This document shows positions 10,945 through 38,239 of a stretch of 64,000 bases of DNA, piece after piece. The stretch comes from Vicugna vicugna. Its lineage: Eukaryota. Position 1 is the stretch's first letter. Each line of letters opens with the position of its first letter. Where the stretch lies: assembly GCA_013265495.1 (NCBI GenBank), contig MU057865.1:434001-498000 (forward strand). The letters run 5' to 3'. The translations under genes were made by a program, and so were the position numbers. The notes beneath the pieces are model-generated. The model saw only the letters and a list, made by a program, of their open reading frames with translations. It was not told where the DNA came from and did not search any database.

Positions 10945-11030
10945 ATTAGTTCATTTGTGTTATGTTTTGGATTCCACACAGAAGTGAGAACCACGTGGTG
11001 TTTGTTTTCCTCTTTTAGACTGACTTCACC
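10945..11030 (-). mobile_element. Short antisense L1 fragment (ORF2 end), possible 5' inversion
   Basis: Reverse complement reads gtgaagtcagtc...ctcacttctgtgtggaatccaaaacataacacaaatgaact. Confidence 0.75.
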
Positions 11031-11305
11031 AAATCTAAACATGGCACAAACGGACTTATTTACCAAAAACACAGAAACAGACTCACAGACGTAGAAAACA
11101 AACTTATGGTTGCCAAAGGGGAAAGAAGGCGGGGAAGGGGTAAGTTAGGAGTTTGGGTTTAGCAGGTACAAACTACTGTATATAAAATAGATAAACAACA
11201 AGGTCTTACCGTACAGTGCAGGGAACTGTATTCAATATCCTGTAATAAATCATAATGAAAAAGAATTTGAGAAAGAATATATATATGTGTGTGTGTGTGT
11301 GTGTG
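11031..11305 (+). mobile_element. Artiodactyl-type L1 3' UTR ending in (TA)(TG)n
   Basis: acagaaacagactcacagacgtagaaaacaaacttatggttgccaaagggg...gggaactgtattcaatatcctgtaata. Confidence 0.9.
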
Positions 11306-11309
11306 TAAA

Positions 11310-11505
11310 CTTTTTTTGAAGTTTATAGTTAGTTACAGTGTGTCAGTTTCTGGTGTACAGCACGATGCTTCAGTCATACATACACATACATATATTCCTT
11401 TTCATATTCTTTTCATTATAGGTTACTACAACATATTGAATATAGTTCCCTGTGCTATCTAGGAGTTTGTTTTTACATTTATTTTATATATAGTAGTTGA
11501 TATTA
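11310..11505 (-). mobile_element. L1 3' end (camelid/artiodactyl type)
   Basis: Poly-T then gtcagtttctggtgtacagc...attgaatatagttccctgtgcta. Confidence 0.9.
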
Positions 11506-12529
11506 GCAATTCTCTTCCTCTACAAGTGTTGCGTATGCTTACTTCCCCTCAGTCCCATTTCATTGTTCTCTCGGGTGGCGTGGAACTATTTTTTCACCTC
11601 TTTGGGGATTTTAATATTTGCCCACAGTTCGCTCTCCGGCACTACCACCACCCCATCTCAATAGCCTGGCTTGAATAAATGGCCCCAGTTTAAACGCTAA
11701 GTCATCAGGTTATTTTTAAAGATTGTGTGTTGGGAGAATTGAGGAGGGAGCCAGAAGGGGCTGCTGATCAAGAGGCGCAGACTGCAAGCCTGTGGAGGTG
11801 AACGGCTGTGTGTCTGCTGAACTACCTGCCATGGCGCTGGGCTGGCGAGGGGGATGCAGAAGTGGCAGGAGCCAACAAGAGACCAATTAAAGTCTGACCT
11901 CTTCCTCGGCGCAGGTCCTGGCTGCGGGGATCTGGGCCAGGCGGGTGGCCTCTGACCACCTCTCAACCTTGGCAACGGGTTTAGAAGCTTCTATTCTGAT
12001 GAAGTTGGGGGCGGTGGAGGAATGTACTGGAAAGAGACCGTGGCTGGCGAATGGTTTTCGATACCATGGCCTCCCCCGGCCTTGGAAGCAGAGTGTGAAG
12101 ATGACACAGCCCTTCAGGGGAAGAGGCGAGCAGAAGGTACTGGAAGGAAAAAATGCAATGGAGCAAACAGGGCATTGCCAATTTATTTTAGAGAACAAGA
12201 AGGAAGAATTTTCAAGGATGGAGGGTGAGATGCAAAAAGGGAAACAAATATACACCTTGCAAGCACACCACACACACGCACACAGACACACATGGCCCGT
12301 ATTCAGGGGTTTTCTGAGGCTCCCTGTTGCAGGATTTACAGGCTCTTGTCTGCAGGCTCTTTGTCACCCAGAGTGTATCAAACAGGCAGCTGTGAGAAGG
12401 CACTTTTCTGGGATGACAGTGTTAATGATTAAGGGCCTTCTTGTTGAGTTTAGCTTTCCTGACACACTGGTGTTACCATAATTAAATGCACAAACCTCCC
12501 TCCTGCCCTTCAAATTATCATTACATGAG

Positions 12530-13229: not shown

Positions 13230-13353
13230 CCTTTTTTAATTGATGTATAGGCAGTTTACAATGTTGTGACAATTTCTAGTGTACAGCAGAATGTCTCAGT
13301 CATCCATATCCATACATATATTCCTTTTCATATTCTTTTTCATTATAGGTTGC
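13230..13353 (-). mobile_element. Young L1 3' end inserted at the tail of an older L1MC
   Basis: ttgatgtataggcagtttacaatgttgtg...cattataggttgc; flanking repeats tagactattatttttt / tagactttatttttt. Confidence 0.85.
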
Positions 13354-13440
13354 TAGACTTTATTTTTTAGTATAATTTTAGGATCACAGCAAGTTGAAAG
13401 GAAGGTACAGAGAATTCCTACACACCCTTTGCACCCCAGA
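13354..13440 (-). mobile_element. L1MC-type 3' end relic
   Basis: ttttaggatcacagcaagttgaaaggaaggtacagagaattcc; antisense counterpart of the element end at ~21170-21237. Confidence 0.7.
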
Positions 13441-13821
13441 TCTACACTCGATTTATTTTTCATTTATTCAGAATAGTCCTGTATTTTTTCAGTTTTTTTT
13501 TTAAATTTTGTGTGTAAATTTTATTTTCCCATTAGGGAGGGTAGGAGTCTTGCCCAGGGTGACACTAGTACATAACAGATAATGTGCTCAAAAATGACAC
13601 ATTGCTTGATAATGCCATTGCTTTTCCTTAGGGGTAGAAAAGGTAGAAATTTGTGGCACATTTTTTCCCCTTGTATCTTGCTTTTCAATATCGCTACTGT
13701 TGTTTTAATAATACGCTGGAAATAATGAATGAACGGCTAATGTTCATAATGTGCGATACCTCCATCCACGTCTAGTCTCAGGGTCGACACCATCACTGGT
13801 CCTGGTTAATCACTTGAAATA

Positions 13822-14018
13822 TTTTTTTTAATTTTTTAATTTTTTAAAGTTTTTTTTTGAGTTATAGTCATTCTACAATGTTGTGTCAAATTCCAGTGAA
13901 GAGCACAATCTTTCAATTATACATGAACACACATACACTCATCGTCACATTCTCTTTCGCTGTGAGCCACCACAAGATCCTGTATACGTTTCCCTGTGCT
14001 ACACAGTACAATCCTGTT
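13822..14018 (-). mobile_element. Young camelid L1 3' end with 17-bp TSD
   Basis: TSD gttaatcacttgaaata (13805-13821) / gttaatcgtttgaaata (14019-14035); collinear with the copy at 27570-27729. Confidence 0.92.
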
Positions 14019-15254
14019 GTTAATCGTTTGAAATAAAATGATTTTTTGTCAAGAGTACCTATTGCACAAGGAGTTACATAGCTGGTTCTCTTCAGATCAC
14101 TCCATCCCTTCCTGTTTTCTGGAAAAGAAGCTTCAACTGATCGCCCACTCCTTTTAGAGGATTCCTTTGTATACCCTTGATGATGCCGAATGAAATAAAA
14201 AAAATTTCAGAAAGTCGTCTTGATCTCTACTTCCTCACTCAAGCAGACAACTTTAATGTATTTGTGCACAGAGAAGAGGAAAACCCACTCCTCTGGGAAC
14301 CGATGACTAAGGATATTGAAAGGCGACTAATCTGATGCCCTCACACGAGTAGGATCAGAAATGAACTAATTTTTGAGTCTTATGCCCCAAATGAAGTAAA
14401 AAAAAAAAATTCCACTATCCAGACAATCCTGTTTATTTCAGAGCAGGAGTTTGTGAAGTAAGTCCTTAAAATCACATCTGTTCACCTTACGTGGCGGGAA
14501 GGAGAGGCGACTTCTGAAGCAGGGTGATTGAAATGGAAATACATTCAAATAAATGGACGCGGGAGCTCCACTTTGTTCTAAATAACCTTTGCTGTGAGCG
14601 ATCAGCTTATTTGAAAGTATGATGGGTGGGCTATCGGGGCAAGGCTGTATCTGATTTTTTTTTTTAATCATTAGTCTATCTTCCCTTTTTATTCAACCTT
14701 TTGGAATAAGGTCTTATACTCAGGGCAGAACAGGGAGTCGGGGAGCTGAGGCTTCAAAGGACACTGTGCACGTGTTTCTGATGGGTTTTCAAGTGCATCC
14801 TTCTCCCCTCGGACGATGTCTCTTTCAGAACACCTAGATTTGAAATTTGCTGTATTACTGCTATAGTACTACAGAAACCAAGGAATGCCACAAGTACCGA
14901 TTTGTATGTAAGAGAAGAAGAAATCTGATTTTTTCTTTAATCAAGAATGCTGTGTGCATCTCTAACAGCCACACCTTGTGAAACACAGCCGTGTACCTTG
15001 GTTGGATGCGTCTGAACTGTATGGGAACAAAGGATCAGTTACAATGATATGTATATATTTGCACATGATCAGCTCAGATTTCCCCTTATAACCCTCTGAC
15101 TACACCTTAAATCAGACTCAAGATTTATGTAGCTTGATCTGTACATTGTCCCTGCCACCGGAATTTTCCCTTCCATCCTTTTGCTCACTTGAATGCCCTT
15201 TCCCCTCCATTCTTTCAAGCAGAAAGGTGAAGTGAACTTTCCTCTTTATATAAA

Positions 15255-22990: not shown

Positions 22991-24594
22991 AAGGACTTGA
23001 CCATATTGAAATATTCTTTTTTTATGTTATTTCTAAGCAATCTTGTTTCCAACCCTGTTACATGAGGACAGAGGCTTTTTCTTTTTGAATTACCTCTGTC
23101 TAGCAGAGCACCTTGCATTTAGGAAGTATCCAGGCATTCTTGTTATCAGTTTCTGTGTTTCCAGCATCCCGATAGTCTCAAAATAGATGCCCTCCCCAAA
23201 TAAATACTGATCAATTCATCCATTGACTGATTTTCTTTCATAATCTTTAACTATTCCCAGAAATCGTTAATTTTTAAATGCATGTACTATCCATAAAATC
23301 AAAACATACTATTACCAATCACACACACAAACACACACACACACAAAACATTGTTCATCATCATTTCTCTTTCTGGGTTTCCGATTAATCTCCTTAAATA
23401 GGTACATTATATTTGCTCTCTCAATTTCTATGTTCTTGGAGCTTGGATTTTACAAATTTCAGTCCTTAGGGGTATCTGTGCCTTATTTATACCTCTAAAT
23501 TCCCTGCCTCTGGAATTGCTGAGGGAGGTAGACATACAAACCATGACAGTAAAAATCAAAGTTATTGCACTGCTGTCTAGGCTGCTGTAACCCAGTTCCG
23601 AGAGCTTTAAGAAAAGCTGACGATGGCTGGGACCAGGGAAGTCCTTGCTTCTTTCGTCCTCTCCTTCGAATCTCAAATAGTCAAGCGTTGCCAAAAATGG
23701 TTTTGGATGCAGAATCTTTCCCAGTCTGTTTCTTTCTTGCCCTGCTTGTGGCGGATGCGGGAAGGAAGAGTAGAAAGGCTATTTCTAGAAAGCAGGTCCT
23801 GAATATGCCTAGTAAGTGTATTAACCACGTGGAAATTCTGAAAGGCTAACAAGATGCAGGATGGCTGAATGAAATCCAAAGGGACAGACCCTGCCCTGGG
23901 GTCTAGCACCTGGGGCAGGAAGTGGCCATGCTCTTGCCACAGTAGGGCGCATGCAACCCACAGGACCTTGGTCACTAGCAAGAAAAAAATGAGTATTAAG
24001 TCTCAGACTCTTATCAGTTAGGTCAAGAGCTTCTCTTCCTGGTGAGAAATTAGTGAGGTTGATGGGAAGGGCCTGGGTGTAAAGTTTCCTTTGCAGTCAG
24101 CTCTAATTCCCACTGCCTTCCTAGGCTCCCTGGAGAATCCATTCAAAAGTTGTCCACTTTAGCGGCTAGCTGGCTTTTCCCTGTTTCCTCGCAGAGTCAC
24201 TGTATTTACTGAGTTTTCTCTTCTTGCTGTCTGAGTGGTGGAGAGGAGGGGTCAGCGGTTGTGTGCTGACCCTGGCGGGTCTCGGACCCGGGACAGCCAC
24301 TCCTGCGGTGTCTCTGGTTTCTTGACCTTGGCGTGTGCCCGTTGCCTCATGCTCTCTGCAGGCTGGCGTCCTTCAACTCAGCAGCCCACGCTCACCTTCT
24401 CTTGAGCGTTCCTTGAGCATCTCTTCTGCTGCTTCCCATGTTCTCCAGGCTGGGCTAAGGTAGTTCCTCCGTGTGCTCCTGAGGTCCTGTTCTCATTTCT
24501 AGCAGGTCGTTCTGTAACTACTTAATTCATGGCCTCTCCCCCGCCCCCACCTCCCTTGGCTGTGCTCCCTTGAGGCAGCTCCTGGAGTGGGATT

Positions 24595-24815
24595 AAGGTT
24601 CACCGAGTGCCTTCAACCTGCCAGACGTGGTGCCAGACCTGTCCCGTCCGTATCTGAGTAAATCTCCACACCCTGCCCTGCGAGGTGGATTTCACTATCT
24701 TTATTTTATGGATGGGTAAGTGGTGGCTTAGAGATACTAAGTAGCTTGCCCAAGGCCACTCATTAAGTGGCAGAGCTGGGCTTTGAATCCAGGTTTCTCT
24801 GACACTTCCAGCCCT
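24595..24815 (-). mobile_element. MIR relic
   Basis: taagtagcttgcccaaggccac...aagtggcagagctgggctttgaatccagg. Confidence 0.75.
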
Positions 24816-27550
24816 CGCTCGTCTCCTGGTGTCGCCCTTCGGGTGCCCTGGTAGAGCTCACGGGCAGCGCTGGCTCGGACGCTCACTGCTGGCTCAGTTA
24901 ACGCCACCGCCTTCATTTCTCTCCTCTGACCTCCTCTCAGGGCAGCACCTCCAGCCGCGGTTGAACCTGCCGACTTCTGTTCCCGCTCCTGCTTCCAGGC
25001 TTGTCCCGTTGACTAGAAGATTTGCAGCTCGAGTGACACAGAGTGACTGAGCTCACGGCCACGCGTTCCACTGTCGAGGGCTGGGCTTGTCAGCAGCTGG
25101 GAACTGACATGCCGGCCGTGGGCACTGATCGTGAGTCGTTCCCCATTAGTGGTCACGGCCAGACTCACCTCCCCACGTCGCGGCGTTCCAGCTGGGCCAC
25201 TGCCGGCCCTAAACTTAAAAAAGAAGCTTCACTATTTGGTTGTTTGATTTGCCCCTCGAGCAGGAGGCTCTCCCGTTCTCCCTAGTGGTTTGCATCTCTG
25301 GATCCTAAGAGGGGGGTGTGGCTAATTCATAGCGGAGCACATACTCCTTTTTCTAAGCTGATCATGGGATGCTGATCAGATTAGAGAGGCAATTAGCAGC
25401 TTTCTTTTTTTTTTTTCTCTTGACATCATCAGAACAGTGATTCTGTTTTTATTTGTCTGCTTTGCTTGCTGTTCTTGGCTTTCTCCTTCTCACCGTTGTC
25501 TTACCAAGTCTACTGTAACAATAATTTATACTCGCTGAGTGTTCACCAGGTGCCAGGCTCTGGTCTAAGTGCCTTAGGTGGATTAACTCCACGTGGTAGG
25601 AACTATTCAAGGCGGCTGAGTACAGCCACCCCCGATAGGTGTGCCCTGCACCCTTCCAGGCACTATTAACACACGTGCAGTGTGAGCATCGCCTCTGGAT
25701 CTGTTAGTGCCCGTCTCCTGGCTCTGTCATCCCCTCCTTGTACAGAGGAGGAAATGCAGAGGCAGAGATCCACCTGCTGCTCTCACTGTACCGCATCTGT
25801 TCCTTTCGGCTTCGCAGTAGAGGTTGGAAAATAATTTTGTCTGGATTTGTATTCCGGGTAACCGAGAGTAATAAAACTATTTTGCTTCAATACTTGAAAA
25901 TCTTTCTAAACGACTCAGTCGTCTTCCTACTCTGACAAGTCGAGTGCCCGGTGAAAGTGCCTGGATCCGTGTAAGCGACGGTCCAGCAGGTGCAGGAGCT
26001 TAGTCTGCTTCCGTCTCAGAAGAACTGCCATCTAGCTGGAGAAAGGATAGGAGGTTAGAAGAGCCTCTCCCTAACACAGGACCTAATTCAGACGTCTGAC
26101 ATTAAAAATTAGTTCTTCATCCCTCTGCATAAGCTGCACAGGGTCCACGGAAACAGGAGATTTTCTTATTTCCACTGTTAGGCTAGCTTGTAGCTGATCA
26201 CCGAATTGATTGGGTAGAATTTTACTCCAAATTACCCTTCAGTGTTAAGTTAAATAAGCATATATACTCCGATGATGGGATAGAAACATTTAAAAACGAT
26301 TCCTGGATTATAGCATCCCGAGAGACATTAGGCATCATATCTTTTAACCGAAATTAGAAATCACTTTACTGCTTCTGAGGATTTTTAAAATGAAGTCTCT
26401 GCTGTGGTGTCTTTATTCACAGGGATCTCCCCACCTCTGAAGATGGCCGTGGTCCCCTGAAAGGGCATCTCTTAGATTACCTTCTGGTTCAGTCGACTCT
26501 CCCACTCTCAGGCAGGGAAAATGGGGCCCCGGGCCACATGCTTAAGAGGGTCCTACTAAACACAGGCACGTGGAAATATGATAAATTAAATTTAAATGTG
26601 CTCACGTGCCTCTGATCTCTTGGGGTCAGGTACTTAGGGCTGGTGCAGCGTGACCCGTGACTCAATATCTCCTCTCAGGACTTGCACAATTCAGGCCCCA
26701 GGAAACGTTTACCCCCTCCCTTCTTCCCCCACAACCTCAGAACACAAAGCATGGGTGTCTGAGGGCCGTGAAGGCTTGTAGGCTGAACGCGGTAGAGGCC
26801 AGGGGCAGATAGTGCCTTGGAGGATGGGAAGGATTTGAGTGGAGAAAGGATGCAGTTAAGATAAAAGACAAATGAATTAGCATGGCACGTCTTTTCTTTC
26901 AGAAGGTGGGGTGGGCTGGGGACCCCTCAATTTCTGCCCTAGAGGTGGGCTCCGTTTTCCGTCGTCCTTCAGATTCTATTTCATGATTCTGGAGTCCCCC
27001 CAAACTGCCGTGGTGACTGGGGAGTTTTTGCAACATTAAGCAATTTGTATTATTTTCAAATTTGTATGTATGTAGTTTGAGCTAGGTGTAACATACATGA
27101 AGAGTGATACTGATTCTTTACATGGACGATTAGATATTGAATGCTAGTATGATGAATATTTTTATTTTAAAAAAAGATTAATAATATCCTATTATGTTTT
27201 CAGATTGTTAAATAGTTGAGTTTATAAAAATAATAATTTCAAAAATTTTGTTAACTAATTATAATTGATATTTTACTTTTTACTTTGAATACTTTGAATA
27301 CTTCAGAAGACAATATGTCTAAAAACATGTATAAAATAGTAAAATGTTTATATTCATTAATTTACATTTTATCAAAATACATTAAGTATATATACTTTGA
27401 ATATACAGCTACAATAAAAATTATCGATTGTTATATTCAATACAATCCAAACAATGTGAAAATTTTGTAACAGCATAATTACTATTTCATTAAAATGAAG
27501 AAAAAATACATTTTGTGGGATAAATAAATTACTTACGAATTATGAATGCA

Positions 27551-28195
27551 TTTTTTAACCTTTTTTAATTGATTTATAATCATTTTACAATGTTGTGTCA
27601 AATTCCAGTGTAGAACACAATTTTTCAGTTATACATGAACATACATATAATCATTGTCACATTTTTTTCTCTGTGAGCTACCACAAGATCTTGTATATAT
27701 TTCCCTGAGCTATACAGTATAATCTTGTTTATCTGTTCTACATTCTGAAATCCCAGTCTGTTCCTTCCCACCCCCCGCCCCCTTGGCAACCACAAGTTTG
27801 TATTCTATGTCTATGAGTCTGCTTTTTGTTTTGGTTTTATGTTTTGTTTGTTTGTTTTGTTTTAGATTCCACATATAAGTGATCTCATATGGTATTTTTC
27901 TTTCTCTTTCTGGCTTACTTCACTTAGAATGACATTCTCCAGGAGCATCCATGTTGCTGCAAATGGCGTTATGTTGTCATTTTTAATGGCTGAATAGTAT
28001 TCCGTTGTATAAATATACCACATCTTCTTTATCCAATCATCTGTTGATGGACATTTAGCTGTTTCCATGTCTTGGCTATTGCAAATAGTGCTGCTATGAA
28101 CATTGGGGTGCAGGTGCCATTTGGAAATAGGGTTCCTTCTGGATATATGCCCAGGAGCAGGATTCCTGGGTCATATGGTAAGTCCATTCCTAGTC
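27551..28195 (-). mobile_element. Young camelid L1, 5'-truncated, with TSD
   Basis: TSD ttatgaatgca at 27540-27550 and 28196-28206; contains the ORF2 C-terminus and full 3' UTR. Confidence 0.95.
27862..28195 (-). pseudogene. L1 ORF2p C-terminal fragment, frameshifted
   Basis: LPYDPGILLLGIYP...CTPMFIAALFAIAKTW then KCPSTDDWIKKMWYIYTTEYYSAIK...FAATWMLLENVILSEVSQ in a second frame. Confidence 0.92.
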
Positions 28196-28299: not shown

Positions 28300-28451
28300 T
28301 TTATTTTAGTTTTTTTTGGGGGGGAGGTTAAGTTTATTTATTTATTTATTTTTATTTGTGTATTTATTTTTAATGGAGGAATAGGGGATTGAACCCAGGA
28401 CCTCGTGCATGCTAAGCATGTACTCTAACCCTGAGCTATACCCCACCTCCC
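28300..28451 (-). mobile_element. Vic-1-like camelid SINE with (TAAA)n and C-rich tail
   Basis: ggggattgaacccaggacctcgtgcatgctaagcatgtactct...ctgagctatacccc; degenerate TSD tttttgccaaatttt / tttttggccagatttt. Confidence 0.9.
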
Positions 28452-35900: not shown

Positions 35901-38239
35901 TGGACTTCTCAATTTCTTGTTTTTAGTATACAAAATCCTATGTGAATCTCCACATTTATCAAAGTTATTTTCCCATGGAATTTTTAAAAAATAAAATGTC
36001 TTGAGAGATTAGAATTCTGTCCCAAATTCTTTGGAAAAATTTGTAATAAGCCGCCTCCCAGAGCACAATAACAGAATGAGGGCTATAAGCATCAATCCTG
36101 AAAACAAGCTGAAATGGAATAAATTTCTGATTCATTTTTTCCATTTCAGAATTCACACGGCATTATTCATTTCAAGCTACAAGACTGTTGAGCACTGTAT
36201 TCCTTTCCCCAAAACAAGAAAGAATATATTATAGCTGTGTGCAAGAAACTGCAGTAAAATCACCTGCCCTGCATAATGATTGGTTTAGTTATTGATAAGA
36301 TTGGGGACAATAACTCTCTGAATGCTATGCTGTATAACATTTCTCATAAGCCCCTATCTCCAAATTTTTCAGCTGCTTCAGAATGATTAATTAGTTCTGG
36401 TGTGTATCAGGAAGGCAGTAATTCCCCAATAAAAACCACAGGTATCAGACCAAATGGATGCAAACTGATCAAAATGTAATGTTATGTTTCCCATAATCAT
36501 GGCGGATCGTTTGGTTGGTATCAAAATTTAGACTTTAGTTTCTGCCACATTTGACTGAAATTTCCTTCCAGCCGTGGCAGAAGGAAGGAAATTTCAGTCA
36601 AATGTGGCAGAGACTCAAGAGGCTCTGCTCACCACAGGTGTTTAATCACAGGGATGCTCTTGGGGGAATAACACCGATGGCTGGCTCGGCCGGCGTCCAC
36701 AGATGGGGAAAAGCTCGTTGCAGGGGAGAGGCAGGTTAGAAGAGTATCAAAATTTGGACCAGCTCCAGAGCAAATCTCATCTTTCATTTCACACCTTTGC
36801 TATTTTCTGTCAGTCTCTCCCCAGAAAGCGTTATTACTTTGCAGCACTCAACAGGGGTTGATGGCATCTTGGATGTCTCCCCTCGGCTTCACTGCCCGGC
36901 GGCTGGACTACTTCATTAAAGCCTGCACCGCACTTCTCCCGGTTTAATGGCCATAAATATAGCTACCCAAAGAGGGGAAACACTTTTCTATCCATGAAGA
37001 TATTACATCCAAGAGACGAAAGGAAAACCTGCTAATTGAGAATCACACTCCGGCTTAATTACACAGATGCTAAAATAATGTAACTGAAGCGCCTTAAAAA
37101 TATAATTATCCACTATGCAATGCTTGAGAGCATGTTTTATCTTTTTGCCTTTAATGTACGTGATCAAGAAAGAGCCAACAAAAGAATAATTCCTGGGTAA
37201 TTTGGGAAAGTGGGACATGTTTGGATTTGAAAGATGTTTCAGAAAAGTGTCTTGCATTTGGAAGGAATCATCAAAGGTATTTTATGAGTAACTATACATA
37301 AAATCCTTCTTCTTTACCTGTATGTTCTTCAAAGGCACCTGGGATTAAAATAAATAGTAAATTTGAGGGTAGCTTGAAACTGTATCCAATTATCTCCTTT
37401 GACATAGCAGAGTGAGGACTGCTGTATATTTGGAAAGGCATACTGTGTTTACCGTGTGACTTGAAGAAGGTCTGGAAATCACCTCTGATTCACTGAATAT
37501 TCTTTCCACTTCCCCTTCTCCAACTTCAAGCCCTATCCTGTCAAAGTCACTGTTAACATGATGCTGGTTTATTATAAATTTTTCAAAAAATTTGCATTGC
37601 AGGCTAATATCTCAAACAGTGCTAAAAATAAACCTGATTATGTATTGTTTTCCATCGCTATTTCCATTGTGTTTTTTATTTTCCTTGTAGATTTTGCCTA
37701 TTTCTGTACATAGTGTTTGCCATGGGTTATCATATACATGCTTCACTAATGCTAATATTGTGCATTTATTATTAACATGGTGGACAAGGCATACTACTGC
37801 TGGCTAAGAAAGATTCTCAGCCAAAAATGTAAAGTAATTTAGCCAAGGGAGGGCTGATAAAGCTTACTTCCATATAGCAATCTAGAGATGGTACTAAAAG
37901 AACTTCATAGGCTTAATTCTTGCCTTCAAGAAGTGCAGACATTTCTAGATACTGGAAGGAGTTGGGTGTAGACATGAAAGGAGGAATGAAGTGGAAGATG
38001 GAATACAGGGACCTTCTAAGGCCAACATGAGGGGGAGAACTATGGGTTAAGTGCACATCCACAGACCATCTTGGTTGGCACCTTGATGAATTAGCCATGG
38101 GAGAGGGCATATGGCAGAGTAGGCATGGAGCTGGGCTAGATTCAAGCTGAGGGTAGGGTTGGTTCTTCCTCCCCCATTCTCTCCCCCCGATCTCCCCCCA
38201 CAATTGAGGTCACAGAGCTGTGAAGGAGGGAGGTGGATG

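Follow-up and report, generated by a model that had tools for sequence, protein, structure and literature searches.

How a short L1 3' end in the genome of Vicugna vicugna came to carry a dense cluster of changes of one type on one strand is the question raised by this locus. The copy lies in a window of 64,000 nucleotides, i.e. the whole stretch of DNA that was analysed, and all coordinates refer to its forward strand (+). The L1 itself reads on the opposite strand, such that T>C on + corresponds to A>G in L1 sense orientation. A first-pass annotation, made from the letters alone, had explained the cluster by ADAR hyper-editing of the L1 RNA prior to retrotransposition. Editing of the L1 RNA by ADAR before retrotransposition is also the best reading of the present analysis (probability about 0.6), and would place the changes before the insertion.

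The focal feature is a 5'-truncated L1 insertion flanked by a target-site duplication (Table 1), and probably a fossil without function. The left and right copies of the duplication disagree at two neighbouring bases of the 17. At the right junction the T/A step alone fits the endonuclease site TTTT/AA, the preceding bases being A rather than T. The motif TCCTG is present upstream of the left duplication copy and again at the end of the insert (13800-13811, 14012-14025), which suggests either that microhomology was involved in the 5' junction or that the duplication extends slightly further. On +, the 37-base tract 13822-13858 consists of 29 T, 7 A, 1 G and no C and thus contains no letters of the A>G type. 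No paralogue of the insertion flanks was detected within the window, and no host gene was recognised by eye among its 19 long frames.

Table 1 Coordinates of the focal L1 insertion, its change cluster and the L1 copies used for comparison
Feature	Coordinates	Strand	Remarks
Left copy of 17-bp target-site duplication	13805..13821	+	2 adjacent mismatches vs right copy
L1 3' end, 5'-truncated, dead copy	13822..14018	-	
Poly(A) tail and extreme L1 3' end, T-rich on +	13822..13858	-	
Final 160 bases of L1 3' UTR, 5'-truncated	13859..14018	-	86% identity to sister 3' end
13 sense A>G changes, within 142 bases	13873..14014	-	Relative to sister and older L1 ends
Right copy of target-site duplication, abutting 5' truncation junction	14019..14035	+	
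Older L1 3' end, about 470 bp from focal copy	13236..13357	-	Local control and outgroup
Sister L1, same subfamily: ORF2 C-terminus, 3' UTR, tail	27552..28195	-	Comparator

The closest relative in the window is a sister L1 of about 640 bases, which is flanked by a separate duplication, some 16 bp long (at 27540 and 28196). Its residues encoded at 27865-28050 match L1 ORF2p (PDB 8uw3/8sxt/9hdo/9k6g, E about 2e-18), while a Pfam search with the same 62 residues returned no family. A 76-base repeat, a putative tRNA-derived SINE, occurs in two copies (86% alike) at 1091-1166 and at 28368-28443. Five older L1 ends in the window, with 66-73% identity to the focal copy, served as outgroups.

Global alignment of 13859-14018 with 27571-27729 revealed 22 differences in 160 positions: 12 T/C (sister/focal), 3 A/G, 2 T/G, 1 T/A, 1 G/A, 1 A/C, 1 A/T and one 1-base gap; no position has C in the sister and T in the focal copy. 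At 13938, where the sister has A and the focal copy C, all five older copies have T, which adds a 13th T>C change. The cluster thus comprises positions 13873, 13910, 13930, 13936, 13938, 13943, 13954, 13968, 13980, 13987, 14002, 14009 and 14014. The first-pass annotation had counted some 13-14 of about 22 differences as C on +, a count that agrees with the 13 of 22 obtained here, and all examples that it quoted were recovered (13873, 13968, 13980, 14014, 14002 and 14009). Its count of about three A>G changes on + holds for the raw pair; on the focal branch only one of them persists, and the other two are G>A changes of the sister branch, each with G in 4/4 older copies.

The five older L1 ends polarise 10 of the 12 T/C sites of the pair as derived in the focal copy; 13910 and 14009 are polarised by the sister only. 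Further comparators came from a HMMER profile of the antisense reading frame, searched against 1.84 billion proteins with 7 hits, of which three (P0001, P0004 and P0006) were compared with the cluster at each site, three (P0003, P0005 and P0007) were aligned only, and P0002 was discarded as unrelated. P0001, a database protein in the same antisense frame, is identical to the focal frame at 21/32 residues, and its source copy looks like a member of the same subfamily, judged by the encoded residues. It covers 11 of the sites, requiring T at seven (13930, 13936, 13938, 13968, 13987, 14002 and 14014), being silent at three and disagreeing at 13954, where it carries the focal residue amid a stretch of divergence of its own. 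P0006, a Camelus isoform model starting inside an older L1 end (XP_074219516.1 and cluster), covers 12 sites, requires T at eight and is silent at four. P0004 carries the focal residue at two sites, both located in a CA/TA dinucleotide stretch, where they may represent recurrent changes. Overall, 10 of the 13 sites have uncontradicted support beyond the sister, two have the sister only and one is disputed.

Two observations on these proteins stand apart from the polarity of the cluster. By eye, P0004 has several further residues of the kind expected from T>C changes, and could be a second hypermutated copy or a sequence with recurrent TA>CA sites. Among RefSeq models, long Camelus 'cryptic protein' isoforms match the antisense frame of an L1 3' end with their first about 80 residues; these starts are either exonised L1 or annotation artefacts.

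After assignment to branches, the focal copy has 16 changes on +: 13 T>C, 1 A>G, 1 T>A and 1 G>A. Left out of this set were 13861, which is focal-derived by one outgroup of four with three letters competing, and 13959, because P0001 has the focal residue there. At 13952, C is the ancestral letter, and the gap there is a deletion in the sister. Within the cluster, the C at 13954 may be common to another subfamily copy, as represented by P0001, and that at 14014 may have been contributed by the target site, since TCCTG also precedes the left duplication copy.

Compared with the sister, the excess is pronounced: T>C affects 13/64 T on the focal branch vs 0/64 on the sister branch (Fisher p=1.2e-4). 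The probability of at least 13 changes in 64 T is 4e-10, 5e-8 and 1.4e-5 at assumed backgrounds of 2, 3 and 5%, respectively; the upper value would not survive across the L1 ends of a whole genome, and the sister branch suggests that the lower backgrounds are closer to the truth. Among the 20 repeat-pair alignments listed in the window, an imbalance of 12:0 was observed for this pair only. The strand bias is likewise evident: on +, 13/64 T vs 1/45 A are changed (p=0.006-0.007). It persists in a stricter set (9/60 T, p=0.04) and falls to 8/53 vs 1/36 (p=0.07-0.08) in the harshest set, from which the CA/TA stretch, the junction and 13954 were removed; the excess over the sister branch remains there with p=0.006. 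The comparison of sense A>G with sense T>C, proposed in the first-pass annotation as a check, therefore favours A>G (13/64 vs 1/45, p=0.007), at p=0.07-0.08 in the harshest set. Cut-offs applied to hyper-edited reads demand A>G changes at at least 5% of the length and at >60% of the mismatches (PMC4365171). The branch-assigned cluster, with a density of 8.1% of length and a purity of 13/16, exceeds both cut-offs (PMC4365171), while the raw pair, with 12/22 or 55%, is under 60%.

Strand and confinement are also the features by which GC-biased gene conversion (gBGC) can be judged, i.e. post-insertion fixation of A/T>G/C changes at a recombination hotspot with a strand bias that is partly due to chance. 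This explanation is unlikely, though it is the first of the rivals to be weighed: 14/16 focal-branch changes are A/T>G/C, the CpG observed/expected ratio is locally high (0.54 at 13601-15000), and the duplication mismatches are readable as one T>C plus one A>G. However, gBGC is strand-symmetric, and a symmetric process is at odds with 13 vs 1 changes (p=0.006-0.007; 0.07-0.08 in the harshest set). Moreover, no A/T>G/C transversion is securely polarised, 13861 being open among three letters, local GC (0.39) is below the 0.43 of the window, and neither the tail nor the L1 end 470 bp away shows an excess. Alongside its 29 T the tail contains no C (p=0.0014 if changed as often as the cluster), a control that is weakened by the reshaping of tails through slippage. 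The nearby older L1 end has 11 changes at 104 scored sites, of which 1 is T>C and 2 are A>G.

The CpG ratio of 0.54, for an interval that was picked post hoc, compares with 0.32 for the window and is equalled in 9/626 overlapping windows. Values of 0.42-0.61 were also observed over 24001-27000, against the same window mean of 0.32. Both regions may reflect either low methylation or GC-biased fixation.

The letters could also have been inherited, if the source element belonged to an unsampled L1 sub-lineage that had acquired them by ordinary drift. This origin is improbable, given that drift would not make 13/16 changes of one type on one strand. It draws on the small number of same-subfamily comparators, which are two only (the sister as DNA and P0001 as protein only), and on the focal residues in P0001 (13954) and P0004 (two sites). 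Searches with focal words yielded no focal-like protein; they found one same-subfamily copy, and their power is thus very low. Exact-motif scans of viral, metagenome and genome contigs provided no further subfamily copy, the sole match (L001) being a chance match, and blastn with the sister as query gave no match in plasmids or phages. Word-based protein searches resulted in 2 candidates for query A3, neither of them significant, and in 13 hits from 3408 candidates for query A5. Five of the latter are query members; the other 8 represent older or other L1 lineages and were left out of the polarity analysis.

The sequence context of the changed sites adds a further line of evidence. By 5' neighbour in sense orientation, the change rate is 6/17 for U, 6/23 for A, 1/13 for C and 0/11 for G, and this order, U>A>C>G, is the one measured for ADAR1 and ADAR2 (PMC3113232 Table 3). 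The first-pass annotation had stressed that no changed T precedes C on +, and indeed 0/10 sister TC sites are changed. As an argument on its own, the depletion of 5' G is weak and not significant (0/11 vs 13/53, p=0.06-0.10), such that from the original case for hyper-editing the direction and the strand bias, each based on several comparators, stand more firmly than the missing 5' G. By 3' neighbour, rates are 3/7 for G, 6/20 for U, 4/23 for A and 0/14 for C, with G vs the rest at 3/7 vs 10/57 (p=0.14). The order reported for ADAR1 is G>C~A>U (PMC3113232); the top rank of G fits it, the 0/14 for C and the 6/20 for U do not.

In 12/13 sites the 5' neighbour is A or U (WA context, p=0.02), and WA is also the motif of polymerase eta, whose signature comprises changes of A to C/G, A>C being a prominent part of it (PMC4686820). 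The 5'-neighbour pattern hence does not separate ADAR from polymerase eta, and the neighbour-context check proposed in the first-pass annotation gives a mixed result, with the U>A>C>G order on one side and the p=0.06-0.10 for 5' G and the shared WA motif on the other. A strand-coordinated burst of error-prone synthesis or repair of the polymerase eta type, at the time of insertion or later, or a transcription-linked A>G bias, both acting in DNA, could have made the cluster; this origin is considered slightly less probable still than the inherited letters. Of 14 changed sense A, 13 became G, one became T and none securely became C, which has p=0.008 if A>G makes up 60% of changes by this route and p=0.2 if it makes up 80%. 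The A-rich tail, all of which is WA, is untouched. As to transcription, 20% of A are changed, well beyond what transcription-linked bias produces, and the window has no recognised host gene. An L1-specific germline strand bias was not confirmed in the literature consulted.

Repeated misincorporation of dC opposite rA by the L1 reverse transcriptase, from a skewed dNTP pool in this one insertion, would likewise be strand-specific and confined to the insert. We regard it as quite improbable. The tail is copied first, yet is without change; the rA:dC mismatch is less favoured than the G:T wobble; and a U>A>C>G order is not expected from such errors.

An assembly or sequencing artefact is very improbable, as 14/24 listed runs, public DNA runs from 5 studies and under 3 organism labels, contain a share of 0.88-0.95 of the words sampled from the 2-kb region, four of them at 0.92-0.95 and thereby above the ceiling of ~0.91 expected without the changed-site words, or near 0.88 without the insertion (even sampling assumed for both). 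This evidence, which is at the level of sampled words, is weak in that the best-matching run may be the source sample. Word shares in RNA runs are 0.05-0.12 and are not evidence of expression. Two scenarios that place the changes in the sister were also considered. APOBEC G>A editing of the sister was rejected, since according to the outgroups and P0001 it is the sister that has retained the earlier base. Decay of CpG on the sister branch, also rejected, could account for 13943 but for no other site; at 13987-13988 it would have to proceed in two steps.

Together, the A>G changes on the sense strand, the neighbour order and the clean tail and nearby L1 end are compatible with an event on the RNA strand that was limited to the UTR. 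In the editing scenario favoured here, ADAR would have converted A to I at these sites when the L1 RNA was in duplex form, paired presumably with antisense or inverted L1 sequence at the source locus. Target-primed reverse transcription in a germline cell would then have copied inosine as G. The tail would have escaped by being unpaired, and the edits would have arisen in the insertion's own template rather than in the round of retrotransposition before it. The strand with the A>G changes corresponds to the RNA; had ADAR acted on the cDNA of the RNA:DNA hybrid, the opposite strand would be marked. As the sense 3' UTR alone folds no better than its shuffles (z -1.35 for the sister, -0.13 for the focal copy), the duplex is one that we infer.

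Inverted arrangements exist elsewhere in the window. At 10958-11514, two older L1 3' ends point towards one another from either side of a (TG)n tract, with an inverted match at 11171-11498 (69% over 341 columns), and could possibly form a duplex if transcribed; the first of them has an apparent short inverted 5' piece at 10958-11029. An 87-base self-inverted stretch, 85% complementary, was observed at 36533-36619.

Whether comparable copies exist is of wider interest. A full-text search of openly accessible papers, screened by titles and the starts of abstracts, found no report of ADAR-type clusters in genomic L1 copies. APOBEC scars in retroelements and ADAR-type A>G changes in avian retroviruses are known; for the L1 case no report was found within that scope. 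Chances are about even that there is a recurring, so far uncatalogued class of mammalian L1 copies made from ADAR-hyper-edited RNA. If true, such copies would represent a fossil record of ADAR editing retrotransposition-competent germline L1 RNA, would imply that inosine-rich templates integrate, and would be for A-to-I editing what APOBEC-edited endogenous retroviruses are for cytidine deamination. If genomic L1 copies include a sense-specific A>G class, this class would settle, by sequence, whether ADAR-edited L1 RNA retrotransposes; it would also place germline ADAR activity in time and give a case of RNA editing turned into heritable DNA change. The focal copy is short and has 13 sites, yet it is a pointer to a cheap genome-wide test.

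Among known systems, the focal cluster resembles a cluster of ADAR hyper-editing that L1 retrotransposition has fixed, and is a candidate member of that class. Retroelements of vertebrate genomes that were edited by APOBEC and became fixed (Knisbacher and Levanon, PMC4866542; Zaranek et al., PMC2873906) share with the focal L1 a dense, one-directional and strand-biased cluster of transitions, interpreted as the scar of a deaminase that became permanent upon retrotransposition. APOBEC scars, however, are sense G-to-A changes resulting from cytidine deamination of cDNA and were screened for in LTR elements, whereas the focal changes are sense A-to-G in a non-LTR L1. In the main text of PMC4866542, A-to-G is mentioned once, as a filter only, and the term 'ADAR' does not occur. 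ADAR hyper-edited RNA (Porath et al., PMC4365171; Eggington et al., PMC3113232) is matched in density, purity and 5' order. It differs in being called from RNA against the genome with a findable duplex, in contrast to the focal case, in which the change is in DNA, the duplex is a postulated one and the 3' order fits partly.

ADAR1 and ADAR2 are reported to restrict L1 and to bind the L1 RNP, so that the enzyme meets its substrate (PMC5224506, PMC8677026). This restriction is described as largely editing-independent, and no ADAR1 or ADAR2 editing was seen in the Sanger-sequenced part of ectopic L1 RNA (PMC5224506, PMC8677026). Rare molecules would escape bulk Sanger sequencing, a point that PMC8677026 allows, and the focal copy would be just such a rare edited RNA that integrated. 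Avian retroviruses (Rous-associated virus, avian leukosis virus) provide an example of A-to-G hypermutation ascribed to ADAR and, as in the reading favoured here, of edits of the ADAR type that reached DNA by way of reverse transcription (summarised in PMC12925331). The avian changes lie near an inverted repeat and affect about 50% of A, whereas those of the focal copy lie in a germline-fixed L1 3' UTR and affect 20%.
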